DNA of 64,000 bases from Naegleria gruberi. Its lineage: Eukaryota. A program made the position numbers and the translations under genes. Below the pieces are notes generated by a model. It ran no database searches and had not been told where the DNA came from. It saw only the letters and a program-made list of their open reading frames with translations. The stretch lies in NCBI GenBank assembly GCA_000004985.1, contig GG738923.1; one strand, given 5' to 3'. Shown here piece by piece: positions 50,276 to 61,703 of the stretch (positions are counted from its first letter, which is position 1; every line of letters starts with the position of its first letter).

Positions 50276-50394
50276 GGCTACGGCCATATCACGATGAATG
50301 CACCTCATCCCGTCCGATTTGAGAAGTTAAGCATCGTCGAGCCACATCAGTACTGAGGTTGGAGACAACTTGGGAACCTGTGGTGCTGTAGTCT
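50276..50394 (+). rRNA. rrn5: 5S ribosomal RNA.
   Basis: GGCTACGGCCATATCACGATGAATGCACC...GGGAACCTGTGGTGCTGTAGTC has the eukaryotic 5S consensus blocks: GCCATAC-like, GTTAAGC, AGTACT, GGGA.CC.GGTGCTGTAG. The 5' and 3' ends pair, and a T5 Pol III terminator follows. Confidence 0.85.
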
Positions 50395-50447: not shown

Positions 50448-50520
50448 CTCCCCCTGGTGGGCTCGAACCACCGACCTGCAGATTAACAGTCTGACGCTCT
50501 ACCGACTGAGCTAAGGGGGA
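50448..50520 (-). tRNA. tRNA-Asn (GTT).
   Basis: The reverse complement TCCCCCTTAGCTCAGTCGGTAGAGCGTCAGACTGTTAATCTGCAGGTCGGTGGTTCGAGCCCACCAGGGGGAG folds as a cloverleaf with anticodon loop cuGUUaa. Confidence 0.85.
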
Positions 50521-55933: not shown

Positions 55934-56184
55934 GAAAAAACTCTGTAAATTTTGCACATTTAATCATCAACATGTACATACACATGCAAATTAGATATAA
56001 CCTTTAACATCAATTTAAACAAATTACTTGAGACTGGCTCTTTAACGATTGAAGATGATCACTCTGAGAGCTATGTTTTTCATCAAATATTACTAATAAA
56101 TTGACTCATTTGGATCTGATCTGTCCTTATTAACCCTCCGTTAGATTTATATACGTGAAATATTTATTTTCAAAATGAGTGTAA

Positions 56185-56258
56185 GCCGTCATAGCTCAGT
56201 TGGATAGAGCACAGGACTTCTAATCCTGGGGTCGTGGGTTCGAGCCCCATTGTCGGTA
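56185..56258 (+). tRNA. tRNA-Arg (TCT).
   Basis: GCCGTCATAGCTCAGTTGGATAGAGCACAGGACTTCTAATCCTGGGGTCGTGGGTTCGAGCCCCATTGTCGGTA has anticodon loop cuUCUaa, a TTCGAGC T-loop, and one U-U mismatch in the acceptor stem. A T-run lies downstream. Confidence 0.8.
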
Positions 56259-56346
56259 AATCTGTTTATTTTGTTTCACATTTGAAATTAATACTGGTGC
56301 GCTTGTTGCATTTAATAAATTTTATTAATTTTTCAATCATTTAACG

Positions 56347-57696
56347 TCAGTCAGGTCTGATAAATCCTAAAGCGAACTCTGATCTATTAGATATTGGATA
56401 AGCGACACAATGCCCTTCCTGAATAATTTGTTTAAAATTTTGCATTGTTTCTGCCCTAAAGACATGCTTTTTACATTTTGTACAAAATCTCTTTTCATCA
56501 GCATAGTCAATTCGTTCCAATTCAGAATATTTCATAGGGCACTCGAAAATCCATTCACAATTTTCTATAAATGATTCTTGTTTTTTTACAGAAAAGGATG
56601 GTTTAGGAATTTTAAATTTTTCATCTGTTTTTGGATCTATTGTTCTCAAAATTTCTCTCACAAGTGGTAAACTTGTTGGTGAATGAATTTGTAAATGTTG
56701 AATTCTTCGTTTCATAACAATCATCCAATTTTTCACATTCAAACTCTGTTGAAATCGTGGGAAATAGAACAACACCATTGGTTTCCAAATTGTATTTTGA
56801 ATCAAATCAACATGATACTCGTCTGGATTCTTTTTGAAATGTTCCTCATCGAGAAATGATCGATACATGCCTTTGAAGGTCATTGACAAGTAGAACAACT
56901 CCTTGAGTGTTAGATAGGAAGCAACTATGGCAGTAACTTCAATTATTGTCTCTCCATTTCTAAATAAAATTCCAATATCTTTGTAAACATTTGGCGTATT
57001 TTCAATAATTGATATTACAATATTATTATCTTCAGTCAATTCAGCTGAATCTGCAAATCCACATTTAAAACTTCTCAAATGTTGGTAATCTGAAATAATT
57101 TCTCCATTTAATACATTTGCCAATTTCTCCAAATCTTGTCTGCTAATTCCTTCTTGGTAAATTATCCCAAATTTATCAAATAATTTTGAAACTAGTTGTT
57201 CATTTTCAAATAGAGAAATAACCATCTTACATCCCATCTCATTAATGATTTTTCCTATTGTAATATTATTTCTTCTTTGTTCTCTAATAGCAGCATCTAT
57301 TGCTGTATAATCCGATCCATAAATCTCCAATGAGGTTAAGGTTGGGAATTTAAAGTCAATTAATGCAACTGACACTTTTTCAATTCGTTTTCGTTTCGTA
57401 TTTGAAGACTTGTTTCTATTAACAATTTCAATTTGATTACAAAAAGTTGTTTTGAAAGAACTGGTTGCATAGAAAAACTTCAATTCATAACTTGGAACAC
57501 TAGTTTCTAATAGATGAATATTGACATTCCCATTTGATGATGTTATTTCAATGGATTGAATTTCTTCTTTAAAGTTGAACAACTCAATCAATTTTCTCTT
57601 CAATTCTTGAAACTTGTCAGGATCTACGCTGATAACACCTGGTGGTTGATCTTTTTCCATTTTTTTTAAATCTATTTCGGAAGAATTACCGATCAA
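56347..57696 (-). CDS. Unknown protein. Its start is probably at the internal Met.
   Basis: 449-aa ORF. It overlaps the upstream gene's stop by 11 nt unless an internal Met is used. Confidence 0.35.
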   Translation of the reverse strand: MIGNSSEIDLKKMEKDQPPGVISVDPDKFQELKRKLIELFNFKEEIQSIEITSSNGNVNIHLLETSVPSYELKFFYATSSFKTTFCNQIEIVNRNKSSNTKRKRIEKVSVALIDFKFPTLTSLEIYGSDYTAIDAAIREQRRNNITIGKIINEMGCKMVISLFENEQLVSKLFDKFGIIYQEGISRQDLEKLANVLNGEIISDYQHLRSFKCGFADSAELTEDNNIVISIIENTPNVYKDIGILFRNGETIIEVTAIVASYLTLKELFYLSMTFKGMYRSFLDEEHFKKNPDEYHVDLIQNTIWKPMVLFYFPRFQQSLNVKNWMIVMKRRIQHLQIHSPTSLPLVREILRTIDPKTDEKFKIPKPSFSVKKQESFIENCEWIFECPMKYSELERIDYADEKRFCTKCKKHVFRAETMQNFKQIIQEGHCVAYPISNRSEFALGFIRPD

Positions 57697-59155
57697 ATAC
57701 TTGTTTTTTCTTTTTTGAAAATGAGAGAGTTTGTTGGCCTCTATCTAATCTTTTTAAATTGGAGTTGTTTTCTTTCCTTTTGTGCACCATTTTTGGAAAA
57801 TCAACCAAGTTTACCAATTGGTCATTCATTTTCCACTTATTAATATATTTCTCAATCTTTTCATTCTCATAGTCAAGTTTAAAAACTAAGGATCTAATGG
57901 TGTTTGATAATTGTGAAGACGCAATGTGGTCTATTGCACGGAGTGAGAACATTTCACTTTTAAAAGAAAGCTGTTCAAGTTTTTTCAAATAAGTGCAATT
58001 ACTAAGATATTCAATAGATAGATCAGTTACACTAGTTGACGATATATTTAAATAAGTGAGAGGGGATTCTCTTTCCAAATTTTCAACAAATCCTTTTGTA
58101 CTCTGGTCATCCAACATTGTTTCACTTACTTCTATTGATAAATATGTTAAATTTTTCAAATATTTTGCAATGGATTGAAGAGCATTCTTTGGAGAGTTAA
58201 TAAACAACTGAAGATGTGTCAAATTTGTTGAGAGACGACCTGAAAACATTTCATTCAAATCATCGAGAGTAAAATTAATCCCATGTAAACCTTTTTGTAT
58301 AGATATACTGGTCAAGCTTGTCAAATGTATACTTGTTCCTAACAATTTCATAGAATTCAAATCACTTGATGAAATATGATTCAATTTGATTTTTTCCACG
58401 TTTGACATATTCTCTGTATCAATATCTTTCAAATTTACCTTTCCATATCTTATTGATATTTCCTTCAGTTCTTTCATTTGCGTTATCAGCTTGAAACATT
58501 CTGGTGTGGTGTTTGCTACAGACATTTGTTGTAAATGTTTCATATTTTCATAAATTATTTGCATTTGTTCATAGTCTATTGTATTGAATACAGAAAACAC
58601 CTTCAATTTCCCCAATAATGGATTGCTAGCTACCTTTCCAATTCCACTCTTTGTAATATCAGACCAAATTGTCAATTTCTCCAGATTTCCAATATAAGGA
58701 CAAGCACTAATTGCCAAAGCAACATTATAATCGCACCCAACAACTTGATATCCTAAAAGAAACAAACTCAATTCGGTCAATTGCTCCAACTCTTTACATT
58801 TGAATAATTGACACAATTCATTAGAATAGTTCATTTGTGATTTTCTAGATTCAATTTTTAAAACTTTCAAGCTTTTCATCTCTGATAAATTCTCACAAAA
58901 TTCCACCACACATGATTCATCTTCAACGAGAAAAGAAAGTGATTGAATATTTTTCAATATGAATGATGATGATCGGAATAAAGAAACAAGAATTGAATCT
59001 CTGATTTGGATCATGTCATACAATTTACATTTAATCACCTCGGATCGCCATAGCTTGGACACCATTGAACAATTGATAATTATTTGTTTCCATGGGAGAA
59101 ATTGCATTATTTGAAAGCAAACATCTGCTGGAATGAACACCTCTTGTTGTGTCAT
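57686..59155 (-). CDS. F-box-like plus leucine-rich-repeat protein.
   Basis: The N-terminus IPADVCFQIMQFLPWKQIIINCSMVSKLWR is F-box-like. Multiple LRRs follow (LTHLQL, LTSLTSISI, LKELKEISI). Confidence 0.5.
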   Translation of the reverse strand: MTQQEVFIPADVCFQIMQFLPWKQIIINCSMVSKLWRSEVIKCKLYDMIQIRDSILVSLFRSSSFILKNIQSLSFLVEDESCVVEFCENLSEMKSLKVLKIESRKSQMNYSNELCQLFKCKELEQLTELSLFLLGYQVVGCDYNVALAISACPYIGNLEKLTIWSDITKSGIGKVASNPLLGKLKVFSVFNTIDYEQMQIIYENMKHLQQMSVANTTPECFKLITQMKELKEISIRYGKVNLKDIDTENMSNVEKIKLNHISSSDLNSMKLLGTSIHLTSLTSISIQKGLHGINFTLDDLNEMFSGRLSTNLTHLQLFINSPKNALQSIAKYLKNLTYLSIEVSETMLDDQSTKGFVENLERESPLTYLNISSTSVTDLSIEYLSNCTYLKKLEQLSFKSEMFSLRAIDHIASSQLSNTIRSLVFKLDYENEKIEKYINKWKMNDQLVNLVDFPKMVHKRKENNSNLKRLDRGQQTLSFSKKKKQVFDR

Positions 59156-59253
59156 TTTTTAAAGATAATTTTCTCAGTTTACAAAGGAATGATCTGATAT
59201 TTCAGACTTTAAAGAAAATTAAAAAGAGAACATCAGTACTTGTAAGCTAAAAT

Positions 59254-59344
59254 TGATGAGTGTGGGATTTGAACCCACGCCCTTGCGGAACACGGTATTA
59301 ATCATACCTTAACGTGTCGTCTTAGACCACTCGACCAACTCACC
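59254..59344 (-). tRNA. tRNA-Leu (AAG) with a roughly 12-nt intron 3' of the anticodon.
   Basis: The reverse complement is GGTGAGTTGGTCGAGTGGTCTAAGACGACACGTTAAGG[tatgattaata]CCGTGTTCCGCAAGGGCGTGGGTTCAAATCCCACACTCATCA. It has a long variable arm (CGCAAGGGCG), a seven-pair acceptor stem with one G-U, and a canonical intron position 37/38. Confidence 0.65.
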
Positions 59345-59427
59345 ATCTGAAAATTAATACACTGTTCTGATTTTAGGAAACATCTGAGTTATTGGCGATA
59401 AATACAAATTCGAACAATAAAAAGATT

Positions 59428-59501
59428 TACCGACAATGGGGCTCGAACCCACGACCCCAGGATTAGAAGTCCTGTGCTCTATCCAACTGAGCTATGACGG
59501 C
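59428..59501 (-). tRNA. tRNA-Arg (TCT), the second, inverted copy.
   Basis: Exact reverse complement of the 56185..56258 gene. Flank similarity extends about 20 nt on each side. Confidence 0.8.
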
Positions 59502-59874
59502 TTACGTTCGTGGTGAAAAATAAATGTTTCTTTTTGATATTGTACATAGGAAGTTTCTAAGAATTCCTTAATATTATGAACTCTCAATGACCATCTCTCA
59601 GGAAAGATGAGTACGTGAATTTTCAACAGCAGTAACATGAAGCATCATATGAGTAGCTTCAAATTACGACAAAGCAATTATTATCCCGGAGTATCTTGTC
59701 TCCGTAACAATCATCATTAACATTGTGGACCATTGGTTCTGGATGATATTTGAAATAACCATCTTGTGGAGAAAAGATAATGAAAGGTACAAAAAAGGAA
59801 TGAATTCGGAAGGATAGCTACAATTCATTCTCTCCAACAATTTTGTGAATCATTGTTTTGAACTTTAATAAAAA

Positions 59875-60453
59875 ATGGCGCAAGATCAACAACCAACACT
59901 TCAAAATCAAAAAACTCCAACAGCACAGCAACACAAGCAATACATTATTACCAAAATATTAGTAGCATTTGTGGCCTTGCTTCATGTTTTCTTTCTAATT
60001 TTGGAAATGTTTTTATGGACTACACCTTTTGGACGTCAAATATCTGGTTTTCCAGAGGCATTTGCACAAATGACACAGGTATTAGCTGCCAATCAAGGTC
60101 TATATAATGGATTTTTGGCCATGGGATTGATTTGGTCAATTTTTTCAAAACAGTTTTACTTTGAATTGCAATTGTTTTTCCTCGGATGTATTGTGATTGC
60201 TGGAATATTTGGAGCTGCAACTGGAAGTATTGCAATTTTAGGAATTCAAGCTGCACCTGCACTTGTTGTGTTGCATGTGGTGTTATTGGAGAGATTTCTG
60301 TTGCCTTTCCTTAAGAAAAGATGGGCATTGAGAAGGGAACAAAGAATGGCTAAGATTGGAGATGAGAATTCAAATATGAGTCTTTTAAGTTCAACAGATA
60401 CACAAGGAGTTGAATATCAGCAATATAATGTTCAACAGGAAGCCATTATTTAA
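59875..60453 (+). CDS. Small 4-TM membrane protein (DUF1304-like).
   Basis: 192-aa ORF with four hydrophobic helices (ILVAFVALLHVFFLILEMFLW, LYNGFLAMGLIWSIF, FFLGCIVIAGIFGAATGSIAILGI, ALVVLHVVLL). Confidence 0.45.
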   Translation: MAQDQQPTLQNQKTPTAQQHKQYIITKILVAFVALLHVFFLILEMFLWTTPFGRQISGFPEAFAQMTQVLAANQGLYNGFLAMGLIWSIFSKQFYFELQLFFLGCIVIAGIFGAATGSIAILGIQAAPALVVLHVVLLERFLLPFLKKRWALRREQRMAKIGDENSNMSLLSSTDTQGVEYQQYNVQQEAII

Positions 60454-60668: not shown

Positions 60669-61703
60669 ATGAAACAACTTAATGAGGACGAATTATTGTT
60701 AATTTTTTCATATTTAAATTTTTCAGAGGTTTTAAATGTTTCGTTAATGAAAAATCGGAAAGTGTACAATTTGATTGGATCTTGTCGCGCGTGGAGGGAA
60801 ATGTATTTAGATTGTATATCTATTATTCAGGAATTTAAAAAGTTTGATGAAAGATGTTGTTGTTCCGAGGAGGCTGGAAAACTTGCTCTTTCCTCTGATT
60901 TTAGAAAATTATATTTTGAACAGATGAGAGAATATTATTTACGTTCGGATATGAATGAACAAGCACTTGTGGAGAGAATTGAAGAATTGGAATCGAACAG
61001 GAAATCTTCATCAACAACTGTTTTTAGAGAATATCATGAATTATTGAAAGATTATCCAAATATCAAAAGTAATGACTTGTATGTTAAATTTATGGTGGTT
61101 GGAAGTAGTTGTGGAAAGACTTCTTTTTTGTATCATTTGAGTTTGGGACTGCATCCTCCTTATTCGAATGTTGCTTCTAATTTGCAATACTTACCAAGTA
61201 TTCATGATGGATATTCCACAAATTTGATATTTGGATCTTCTTTTTGTAATATTGGATTTTGGGATACATCGGGAAAATCAGAATATAAAACACTTAGACC
61301 ATTGAGCTATCCAGGGACAGATGTGTGTTTTCTTTGCTTTGACTGCATGAGCTATGATTCATTGGATTTAGCGATTAATACATTTTTGGAGGAATTAACA
61401 AGTCATATGAAACAAGAAGGGAAAACTTTTCCTATTGCTTTGCTTTCAACAAAGCATGATTTGCAGCAAGATAGAAAGGAAGTATTGAAATTACTAATTT
61501 CAAAACAACAAAAACCAATTAATAGTCAACTTGGAGAAAGAATAGCAAAAGCAATCGGATGTGTAACCTATTTGGAATCCATTCTTCTTCCATCTAAAGA
61601 TTACTTTAAGATAATTTTCAATATTTCAAGAATTGAGAAACTTCCAGTAACAACAGAAAAGCAATCCTTGCTACAGAAACTAGGTAGATTTTTCAAAAAG
61701 TAA
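60669..61703 (+). CDS. F-box-like N-terminal domain fused to a divergent Rho-family GTPase. Paralogue of 38760..39986.
   Basis: N-terminus LLLIFSYLNFSEVLNVSLMKNRKVYNLIGSCRAWREMY. G domain: FMVVGSSCGKTSFLY (G1), FWDTSGKSEYKTLRPLSYPGTD (G3, with Lys at the catalytic Gln position), LLSTKHDL (G4). Confidence 0.6.
   Translation: MKQLNEDELLLIFSYLNFSEVLNVSLMKNRKVYNLIGSCRAWREMYLDCISIIQEFKKFDERCCCSEEAGKLALSSDFRKLYFEQMREYYLRSDMNEQALVERIEELESNRKSSSTTVFREYHELLKDYPNIKSNDLYVKFMVVGSSCGKTSFLYHLSLGLHPPYSNVASNLQYLPSIHDGYSTNLIFGSSFCNIGFWDTSGKSEYKTLRPLSYPGTDVCFLCFDCMSYDSLDLAINTFLEELTSHMKQEGKTFPIALLSTKHDLQQDRKEVLKLLISKQQKPINSQLGERIAKAIGCVTYLESILLPSKDYFKIIFNISRIEKLPVTTEKQSLLQKLGRFFKK

Follow-up and report, generated by a model that had tools for sequence, protein, structure and literature searches.

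Identical, inverted tRNA-Arg(TCT) genes with shared flanks in Naegleria gruberi: a probable small duplication of one Pol III gene unit

Two identical tRNA-Arg(TCT) genes lie in opposite orientation, 3.1 kb apart, in the 64,000-nucleotide stretch of the Naegleria gruberi genome analyzed here (hereafter, the window). The pair probably represents a small, DNA-level inverted duplication of a single Pol III gene unit in the N. gruberi lineage. It is real, yet belongs to an ordinary kind of tRNA gene duplication. The interval between the copies contains two protein genes and a tRNA-Leu gene.

The left copy (residues 56185-56258, plus strand) and the right copy (59428-59501, minus strand) were called by both ARAGORN and Rfam/Infernal, each with a score of 65.2 bits against RF00005. 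These scores, and that of the tRNA-Leu, exceed the gathering score of 29 for this family. Pairwise comparison shows the two copies to be identical (74/74), and their orientation in the ARAGORN calls is convergent. Both programs thus bear out the initial annotation, which had proposed an identical, inverted tRNA-Arg pair with a tRNA-Leu alongside. The acceptor-stem U-U mismatch that it had described is marked in the Rfam/Infernal alignment of both copies as U5-U68, together with a G1-U72 wobble. The mismatch and wobble would weaken the acceptor stem and are common to both copies. The internal promoter consists of an A box, TAGCTCAGTTGG, which was read from the sequence, and a B box, GGTTCGAGCCC. 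The first TTTT run of the left copy is at +11, and a TTTTT run begins at +5 of the right copy. Both internal boxes and an oligo-T run downstream, as expected of a type 2 Pol III gene, are therefore present in both tRNA-Arg copies, as they are in the tRNA-Leu. Both copies look functional and are presumably expressed.

The two copies are similar not only in the mature tRNA but also in the flank on either side. An ungapped inverted repeat of 104 nt with 94% identity pairs 56167-56270 with 59416-59519. When 1-nt indels are allowed, the repeat spans about -29 to +12, perhaps +28, relative to the gene. As delimited by the repeat search, motif counts and an anchored test, the left arm (56157-56270, plus strand) consists of 28 nt of upstream flank, the tRNA-Arg and 12 nt downstream, and the right arm (59416-59530, minus strand) of 29 nt of upstream flank, the tRNA-Arg and 12 nt downstream. 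The upstream flanks, aligned with one indel, start at -29 and are identical in 22 of 29 columns. The downstream flanks match at 11 of 12 positions, followed by a looser, indel-bearing stretch to about +28 that possibly reaches about 56289 in the left arm and about 59400 in the right arm. The upstream motif GAAAYATTTATTTTYCA occurs within the 64 kb only at 56157 and at 59514-59530, and the trailer motif only at the two tRNA-Arg copies. The similarity ends sharply at both sides of both copies, and the pair is the sole inverted repeat of at least 35 nt with more than 75% identity in the window.

Anchored extension from the gene ends gave scores of 14 for the upstream and 13 for the downstream flanks, compared to a mean of 1.2-2.1 (sd 1.6-2.2) for random window pairs, corresponding to P≤0.001 per side, AT-matched sequence included. 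The flanks of the only three other Pol III genes available as a within-window control for flank constraint (tRNA-Leu, tRNA-Asn and 5S) scored 0-5 against the tRNA-Arg flanks. Thus, the in-register similarity on both flanks is above background, which agrees with the earlier claim of an inverted duplication reaching beyond the tRNA and sets it apart from generic AT-rich sequence. Without an anchor, local alignment of the flanks over 300-400 nt was not significant and stayed at background level, which limits the shared unit to about 115-130 bp. A larger duplication was rejected on this basis, and no decayed tRNA-Leu relic was found beside the left copy, even in a permissive Rfam scan at E≤10. Support for a segmental event ends at about 130 bp.

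We propose that a local, DNA-level event placed an inverted copy of one tRNA-Arg(UCU) unit, about 115-130 bp long, near the original. This unit would comprise the upstream flank of about 29 nt with a TATA-like element (TATTTATTTT), the 74-nt gene and a short trailer with the oligo-T terminator. Both copies would have remained intact, independently transcribed Pol III genes, with the 74-nt body held identical by purifying selection, possibly together with gene conversion, and the flanks drifting to about 76% identity. Since AGA is by far the commonest arginine codon (68% of Arg codons in 11 ORFs of the window), retention of the second copy for dosage is plausible. The upstream similarity reaches -29, past the usual Pol III 5′ leader, which points to DNA-level rather than RNA-mediated copying; a SINE or retroposition origin was rejected because the two copies stay alike for 29 nt ahead of the transcribed tRNA. 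The two unrelated protein genes and the tRNA-Leu would simply be what happens to occupy the 3.1 kb between the copies.

The tRNA-Leu(AAG) gene (59254-59344, minus strand; 47.4 bits in Rfam, and called by ARAGORN with introns allowed) is a class II tRNA with a long variable arm. It is arranged in tandem with the right tRNA-Arg copy, 82-83 nt downstream of it. The initial annotation had correctly placed it next to the right copy, with a spacing of 84 bp that is slightly too large; likewise, its gene, anticodon and intron hold, and the intron is 11 nt rather than about 12. The anticodon is located at 59308-59310. The insertion, UAUGAUUAAUA, occupies 59296-59306 at the canonical 37/38 placement in the ARAGORN prediction with introns allowed, and appears in the alignment to the Rfam model as 11 extra nucleotides in the anticodon loop. 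The resulting 18-nt loop reads UUAAGG+UAUGAUUAAUA+C and is flanked by the stem strands ACACG and CGUGU. The insertion lies directly 3′ of position 37, with U33 and a purine at 37 kept, and is thus a predicted intron of the canonical 37/38 type. Apart from the anticodon, the D arm, A73 and the long variable arm also fit a leucine tRNA. Its internal boxes are TGGTCGAGTGG (A box) and GGTTCAAATCC (B box), and a TTTT run begins at +2.

The two bracketed protein genes lie outside the repeat. The first (56347-57660, minus strand) encodes a 437-residue N. gruberi “predicted protein”, with 100% identity to the deposited entry. It has a Pfam match to Cpn60_TCP1 (35.4 bits), and its residues 74-214 resemble CCT delta (1.3e-6). 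This protein thus includes a stand-alone stretch similar to the group II chaperonin apical domain. The second (57686-59155, minus strand) encodes a 489-residue protein with an N-terminal F-box (21.4 bits, Pfam cutoff 20.5), for which no relative of solved structure was found. The interval had initially been described as containing a gene of no assigned function and an F-box/LRR gene; the two genes and the F-box stand, and the LRR assignment is not confirmed, as no LRR family was detected by Pfam at E≤0.01. The two proteins have no significant similarity to each other and are not paralogues, which led us to reject the interval as a duplicated gene cassette. Homology searches with the bracketed genes returned two matches only, one of which is the query's own N. 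gruberi entry. Both genes are encoded on the minus strand and are flanked on each side by two plus-strand protein genes. The initial annotation had also regarded the interval as a candidate landing site for retroelements, by reference to TRE/DGLT-A targeting in dictyostelids. As the host is Naegleria gruberi (Heterolobosea) and not a dictyostelid, this argument does not apply, and no reverse transcriptase, integrase or transposase domain was detected by Pfam in the bracketed genes. The identity of the host is shown by two proteins of the window, which match N. gruberi predicted proteins on a 326,815-bp contig with 100% identity. The initial annotation had further suggested that the inverted tRNA genes could promote local inversion; such a hotspot would have a precedent in yeast, where tRNA genes of opposite orientation border inversions (Kellis et al. 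2003, as reviewed in PMC7990762).

A specific mechanism for the inverted duplication, and so not an alternative to duplication as such, would be a 3.1-kb micro-inversion through staggered breaks. A single ancestral tRNA-Arg would have been located at one breakpoint, and fill-in and end joining would have left one copy of the unit of about 130 bp at each end of the segment, the two facing in opposite directions. The geometry fits the staggered-break model from Drosophila (PMC1885836): the repeat search and motif counts identified a short, otherwise unique sequence as inverted copies at either end of the segment, the similarity stops abruptly around each copy, and the tRNA-Leu of the right copy has no duplicate at the left. 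Furthermore, tRNA genes (tDNAs) act as barriers to replication forks, are fragile and, in yeasts, coincide with the breakpoints of rearrangements (PMC7990762). Reversing the inversion would also turn six genes, the inner two now minus and the outer four plus, into a co-oriented run, although such a pattern has about a one-in-four chance of arising by accident. The divergence of the flanks, about 24%, indicates an old event whose junctions are no longer readable. The compared loci of N. lovaniensis and Naegleria (Logan SRR29240419) are not syntenic with this one, or the contig ends too early. On balance, we regard the micro-inversion as possible but unlikely. If true, it would be the first staggered-break micro-inversion scar at a Pol III gene described in a heterolobosean, and would link the fragility of tDNAs to changes in gene order, in a genome with an unusually large number of tDNAs (about 924).

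The relatives were probed with the nearest conserved neighbor, a BK-channel gene, which identified one locus in N. lovaniensis (L003) and two in the Naegleria assembly (L002 and L004). The L002 contig stops 0.5 kb beyond the BK-channel gene. L003 and L004 have different downstream genes and seem to match the N. gruberi paralogue. None of the three loci contains a tRNA gene. The sole homologue of the first bracketed gene is the N. lovaniensis protein P0002 at another locus (L001), where the neighbors differ and no tRNA was found within 10 kb on either side. No Naegleria orthologue of the neighboring DUF1304 gene was found, its best match being on a high-GC bacterial contig. The exact 74-nt tRNA-Arg sequence had 0 matches in a metagenome scan, and a viral scan with the tRNA-Arg likewise gave 0 matches. 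Two metagenome matches to a relaxed acceptor-stem pattern were dismissed as chance occurrences inside bacterial coding sequence, and not tRNAs.

Alternatively, each copy could belong independently to a multi-copy Arg(UCU) family, the proximity and inverted orientation of the two being incidental. Members of a tRNA family are usually identical in mature sequence. With about 924 tDNAs in 41 Mb, roughly 20 copies per anticodon are expected in N. gruberi, and random placement alone is roughly estimated to yield about three pairs of the same anticodon, at most 3.3 kb apart, across the genome. The shared flanks would then be conserved by functional constraint on the TATA-like element, leader, trailer and terminator, or would have spread with the tRNA as a unit of about 130 bp, and might thus characterize the family at large and not this pair in particular. 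Indeed, the shared sequence falls on the Pol III control region: from -29 to about +28, it overlaps the region where TFIIIB binding, leader and trailer processing, and termination could impose constraint. AT-rich, TATA-like runs are also found upstream of the tRNA-Leu, tRNA-Asn and 5S genes, at different distances, but these genes have no in-register flank similarity to the tRNA-Arg copies. Moreover, the upstream matches exceed the TATA-like run, with GAAA preceding that run and CA and GTAA following it, and the first six nucleotides of the trailer (AAATCT), a region normally free to vary, are identical in both copies. These additional matches suggest that the shared flanks descend from a common ancestor of these two copies in particular. 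Independent family membership is a live rival but an unlikely one, slightly behind the micro-inversion.

Two further explanations carry little weight. In the first, the locus would be an active recombination switch, in which the 104-nt arms flip the 3.1-kb segment, or the tDNAs would serve as paired insulators of a lineage-specific two-gene cassette. The perfect 74-nt inverted core and the poor conservation of the bracketed genes would be compatible with such roles, and yeasts provide examples both of inversions bounded by oppositely oriented tDNAs and of tDNAs acting as chromatin boundary elements (PMC7990762). However, homologous recombination would find only a short substrate in 74 nt of identity, neither a recombinase nor another specialized feature was found at the locus, and every tDNA pair would qualify equally, such that a switch or insulator function is highly improbable. 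An assembly artefact producing a false inverted copy is the least credible of all, since the diverged flanks are unique at each copy and the interval has two intact ORFs, one of them exactly matching a deposited N. gruberi protein.

By itself, the local inverted duplication matters little: N. gruberi was already known for its many tDNAs and close tDNA pairs, and this locus adds one further example of local duplication. The only wider value of the pair would be as a seed for a genome-wide question, namely whether the expansion to about 900 tDNAs proceeded through units of about 130 bp, and whether such events are coupled to micro-inversions.

Among known systems, the dictyostelid TRE5/TRE3 and DGLT-A elements resemble this locus only in that tRNA genes are present. 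Dictyostelids are amoebozoans, whereas N. gruberi belongs to Discoba, and the bracketed genes contain no retroelement domain; with Naegleria rather than Dictyostelium as the host, the rationale for a retroelement hotspot is removed. The staggered breaks of Drosophila offer a closer parallel. There, inverted duplicates range from 46 bp to 1.9 kb, with a median of 321 bp, and often derive from one breakpoint only (Ranz et al. 2007, PMC1885836). The repeat described here is likewise a short inverted duplicate of otherwise unique sequence at the ends of a segment, falls within the same size range and would derive from one breakpoint. In contrast, the Drosophila inversions are megabase-scale and verified with outgroups, while the would-be micro-inversion here is conjectural, covers 3.1 kb and would have duplicated a Pol III gene. 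In yeasts, inversions flanked by oppositely oriented tDNAs have been described (Kellis et al. 2003; Gordon et al. 2009; review, PMC7990762). The arrangement is similar, with same-type tDNAs in opposite orientation bracketing a short, gene-bearing segment. The yeast inversions were demonstrated by species comparison, whereas an inversion here is a conjecture from one genome.

The closest likeness is to the tDNA pairs surveyed by Bermudez-Santana et al. 2010 (PMC2888827), in which same-type tRNA genes are locally duplicated and close together. According to that survey (supplement 2), N. gruberi has about 924 tDNAs, and its close tDNA pairs are twice as frequent as expected at random. Same-type close pairs are about six-fold enriched (12 observed compared to about 2 expected), which indicates that local tDNA duplication is common in this genome; 4 of these 12 adjacent pairs are anti-parallel. 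The survey was limited to adjacent tDNAs at most 1 kb apart. Unlike those pairs, the tRNA-Arg copies are separated by 3.1 kb that include another tDNA and two protein genes, and they would thus escape its count. The tandem arrangement of the right tRNA-Arg with the tRNA-Leu, on the other hand, corresponds to the common heterogeneous parallel type of that survey, for which 45 pairs were observed in N. gruberi compared to 18.6 expected (PMC2888827, supplement 2).

The window contains four tRNA genes by ARAGORN, all four of them confirmed by Rfam covariance models as a second method. Two are identical tRNA-Arg(TCT) genes (74/74 nt), convergent at 56185–56258 (+) and 59428–59501 (−), each with an Rfam score of 65.2 bits compared to a gathering score of 29. 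Their identity and opposite orientation, reported in the initial annotation, are confirmed, and the acceptor-stem mismatch that it described in both copies is flagged in the Infernal alignment as U5-U68; a G1-U72 wobble is also common to both. As the A box, the B box and a run of at least four T residues within 11 nt are kept in each, both copies are probably active. Since AGA represents 68% of Arg codons in eleven ORFs of the window, retention of the two copies for dosage is plausible. Rfam also identified, in addition to the ARAGORN set, a dispersed 5S rRNA gene (50276–50394, +; 105 bits). It and tRNA-Asn(GTT) (50448–50520, −) are arranged tail to tail with only 53 nt between them, and each gene has an oligo-T run of its own. 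The Arg/Leu/Arg group is 6 kb away, so that five Pol III genes fall within 9.3 kb.

The similarity of the Arg pair reaches past the tRNA, as originally proposed. A repeat finder returned ungapped inverted arms of 104 nt at 94% identity (56167–56270 and 59416–59519), the sole substantial inverted repeat in the window. Once a 1-nt indel is allowed, the upstream match starts at −29 (GAAATATTTA-TTTTCAAAATGAGTGTAA versus GAAACATTTATTTTTCACCACGAACGTAA; 22 of 29 columns identical). The downstream match is AAATCT[G/T]TTTATT, after which a looser similarity with indels continues to about +28. Anchored extension from the tRNA boundary scored 14 on the upstream side and 13 on the downstream side, against means of 1.2–2.1 (sd 1.6–2.2) for random 40-mer pairs from the window, including pairs limited to 25–30% GC. 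The similarity therefore exceeds AT-rich background on each side (P≤0.001). In comparison with the Arg flanks, those of the other three Pol III genes (Leu, Asn and 5S) scored just 0–5, and the flank motifs were found nowhere in the 64 kb outside the two Arg copies. Unanchored local alignment of 300–400 nt flanks gave no similarity above background, and a permissive Rfam scan beside the left copy detected no decayed tRNA-Leu. Thus, the shared unit is small, about 115–130 bp, and does not include the Leu gene.

The pair most likely arose by copying of one tRNA-Arg(UCU) gene unit at the DNA level, in inverted orientation. The tRNA body is identical and the flanks have diverged to about 76% identity, which suggests that the duplication is not recent. 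A possible, although doubtful, mechanism for this duplication is a 3.1-kb micro-inversion via staggered breaks, with which the geometry agrees: each copy is short and sharp-edged, the Leu gene is absent from the duplicated unit, and minus-strand orientation of the two inner genes contrasts with plus-strand orientation of the four genes around them. The main rival, that all Arg(UCU) genes of N. gruberi carry such flanks, through constraint or as a common dispersal unit, is unlikely. RNA-mediated copying is also unlikely, because the similarity extends to 29 nt upstream of the gene. Loci retrieved from N. lovaniensis and a second Naegleria assembly were non-syntenic or on too short a contig, with no tRNAs, and metagenome and viral scans gave no genuine tRNA-Arg copy.

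The third tRNA (59253–59345, −) shares its strand with the right Arg copy and is 83 nt downstream of it, essentially as annotated (84 nt). Its type was not called by ARAGORN without introns; with introns allowed, it is Leu(AAG), with an intron of 11 nt instead of the roughly 12 claimed. The anticodon loop reads UUAAGG-UAUGAUUAAUA-C between stem strands ACACG and CGUGU, in the order U33, anticodon AAG (59308–59310), G37 and intron (59296–59306), so that the insertion falls at the canonical 37/38 position. Assignment to Leu is also supported, apart from the anticodon call, by A73 and the long variable arm. Within its anticodon and intron region (59296–59310, −), this tRNA has A34, which would be expected to undergo deamination to inosine; introns are uncommon in A34 tRNAs of familiar model eukaryotes.

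The two bracketed genes are mutually unrelated, and neither contains a mobile-element domain. The 437-residue ORF at 56347–57660 (−) matches a predicted protein of Naegleria gruberi at 100% identity and contains an isolated region like a group II chaperonin apical domain. The chaperonin match is confined to this domain (residues about 74–241; CCT delta, 1.3e-6), and the Pfam Cpn60_TCP1 match is barely over cutoff. Over its C-terminal third, it is similar to a protein of N. lovaniensis labelled "F-box domain-containing". The product is an N. gruberi orphan, and a stand-alone apical domain is unusual. The second gene (57686–59155, −), annotated as F-box/LRR, has an N-terminal F-box, but no LRR family scored above threshold. 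Beyond the right Arg copy, by 373 nt, lies a DUF1304 membrane-protein gene (59875–60453, +) identical to an N. gruberi protein. Its best non-self matches are all bacterial or metagenomic (46–64% identity), the top one on a high-GC bacterial contig, and the best 120 include no other Naegleria protein; the gene is a candidate for bacterial transfer into N. gruberi. An ORF at 60669–61703 (+) encodes a Ras/Rho-type GTPase domain (residues 140–304; Pfam Ras, 2.9e-17), preceded by an N-terminal stretch of ~50 residues (LLLIFSYLNFSEVLNVSL...) that is F-box-like by eye; Pfam gave no F-box match. Elsewhere, the 42435–42775/43635–45147 region contains a 96-nt tandem repeat within an ORF (three overlapping copies, 79–81% identical) and an adjacent ORF pair ~850 nt apart with segments in common (74–84% identical), suggestive of tandem gene duplication.

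The initial annotation viewed the interval as a candidate hotspot, on the grounds that inverted tRNA repeats can promote local inversion and by reference to dictyostelid TRE/DGLT-A elements. The dictyostelid argument falls because the window comes from the nuclear genome of N. gruberi: two ORFs are identical to proteins of that species, and the GC content of 30–37% fits. In Saccharomyces sibling species, tDNAs in opposite orientation flank every inversion found, and tDNAs are replication-fork barriers and fragile sites (PMC7990762). Of the fixed inversions in Drosophila, 59% have unique breakpoint sequence present as short inverted duplicates, 46 bp to 1.9 kb in size, which staggered breaks explain (PMC1885836). 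A survey of eukaryotic tDNA organisation counted 924 tDNAs in N. gruberi, with 77 adjacent pairs within 1 kb (39 expected), 12 same-type pairs (about 2 expected; 4/12 anti-parallel) and 45 parallel mixed pairs (18.6 expected) (PMC2888827). As these counts exceed expectation, it is commonplace in this genome for tDNAs to be duplicated locally and to form tandem mixed pairs such as Arg-Leu. The Arg pair is an ordinary further case of a familiar kind of feature.
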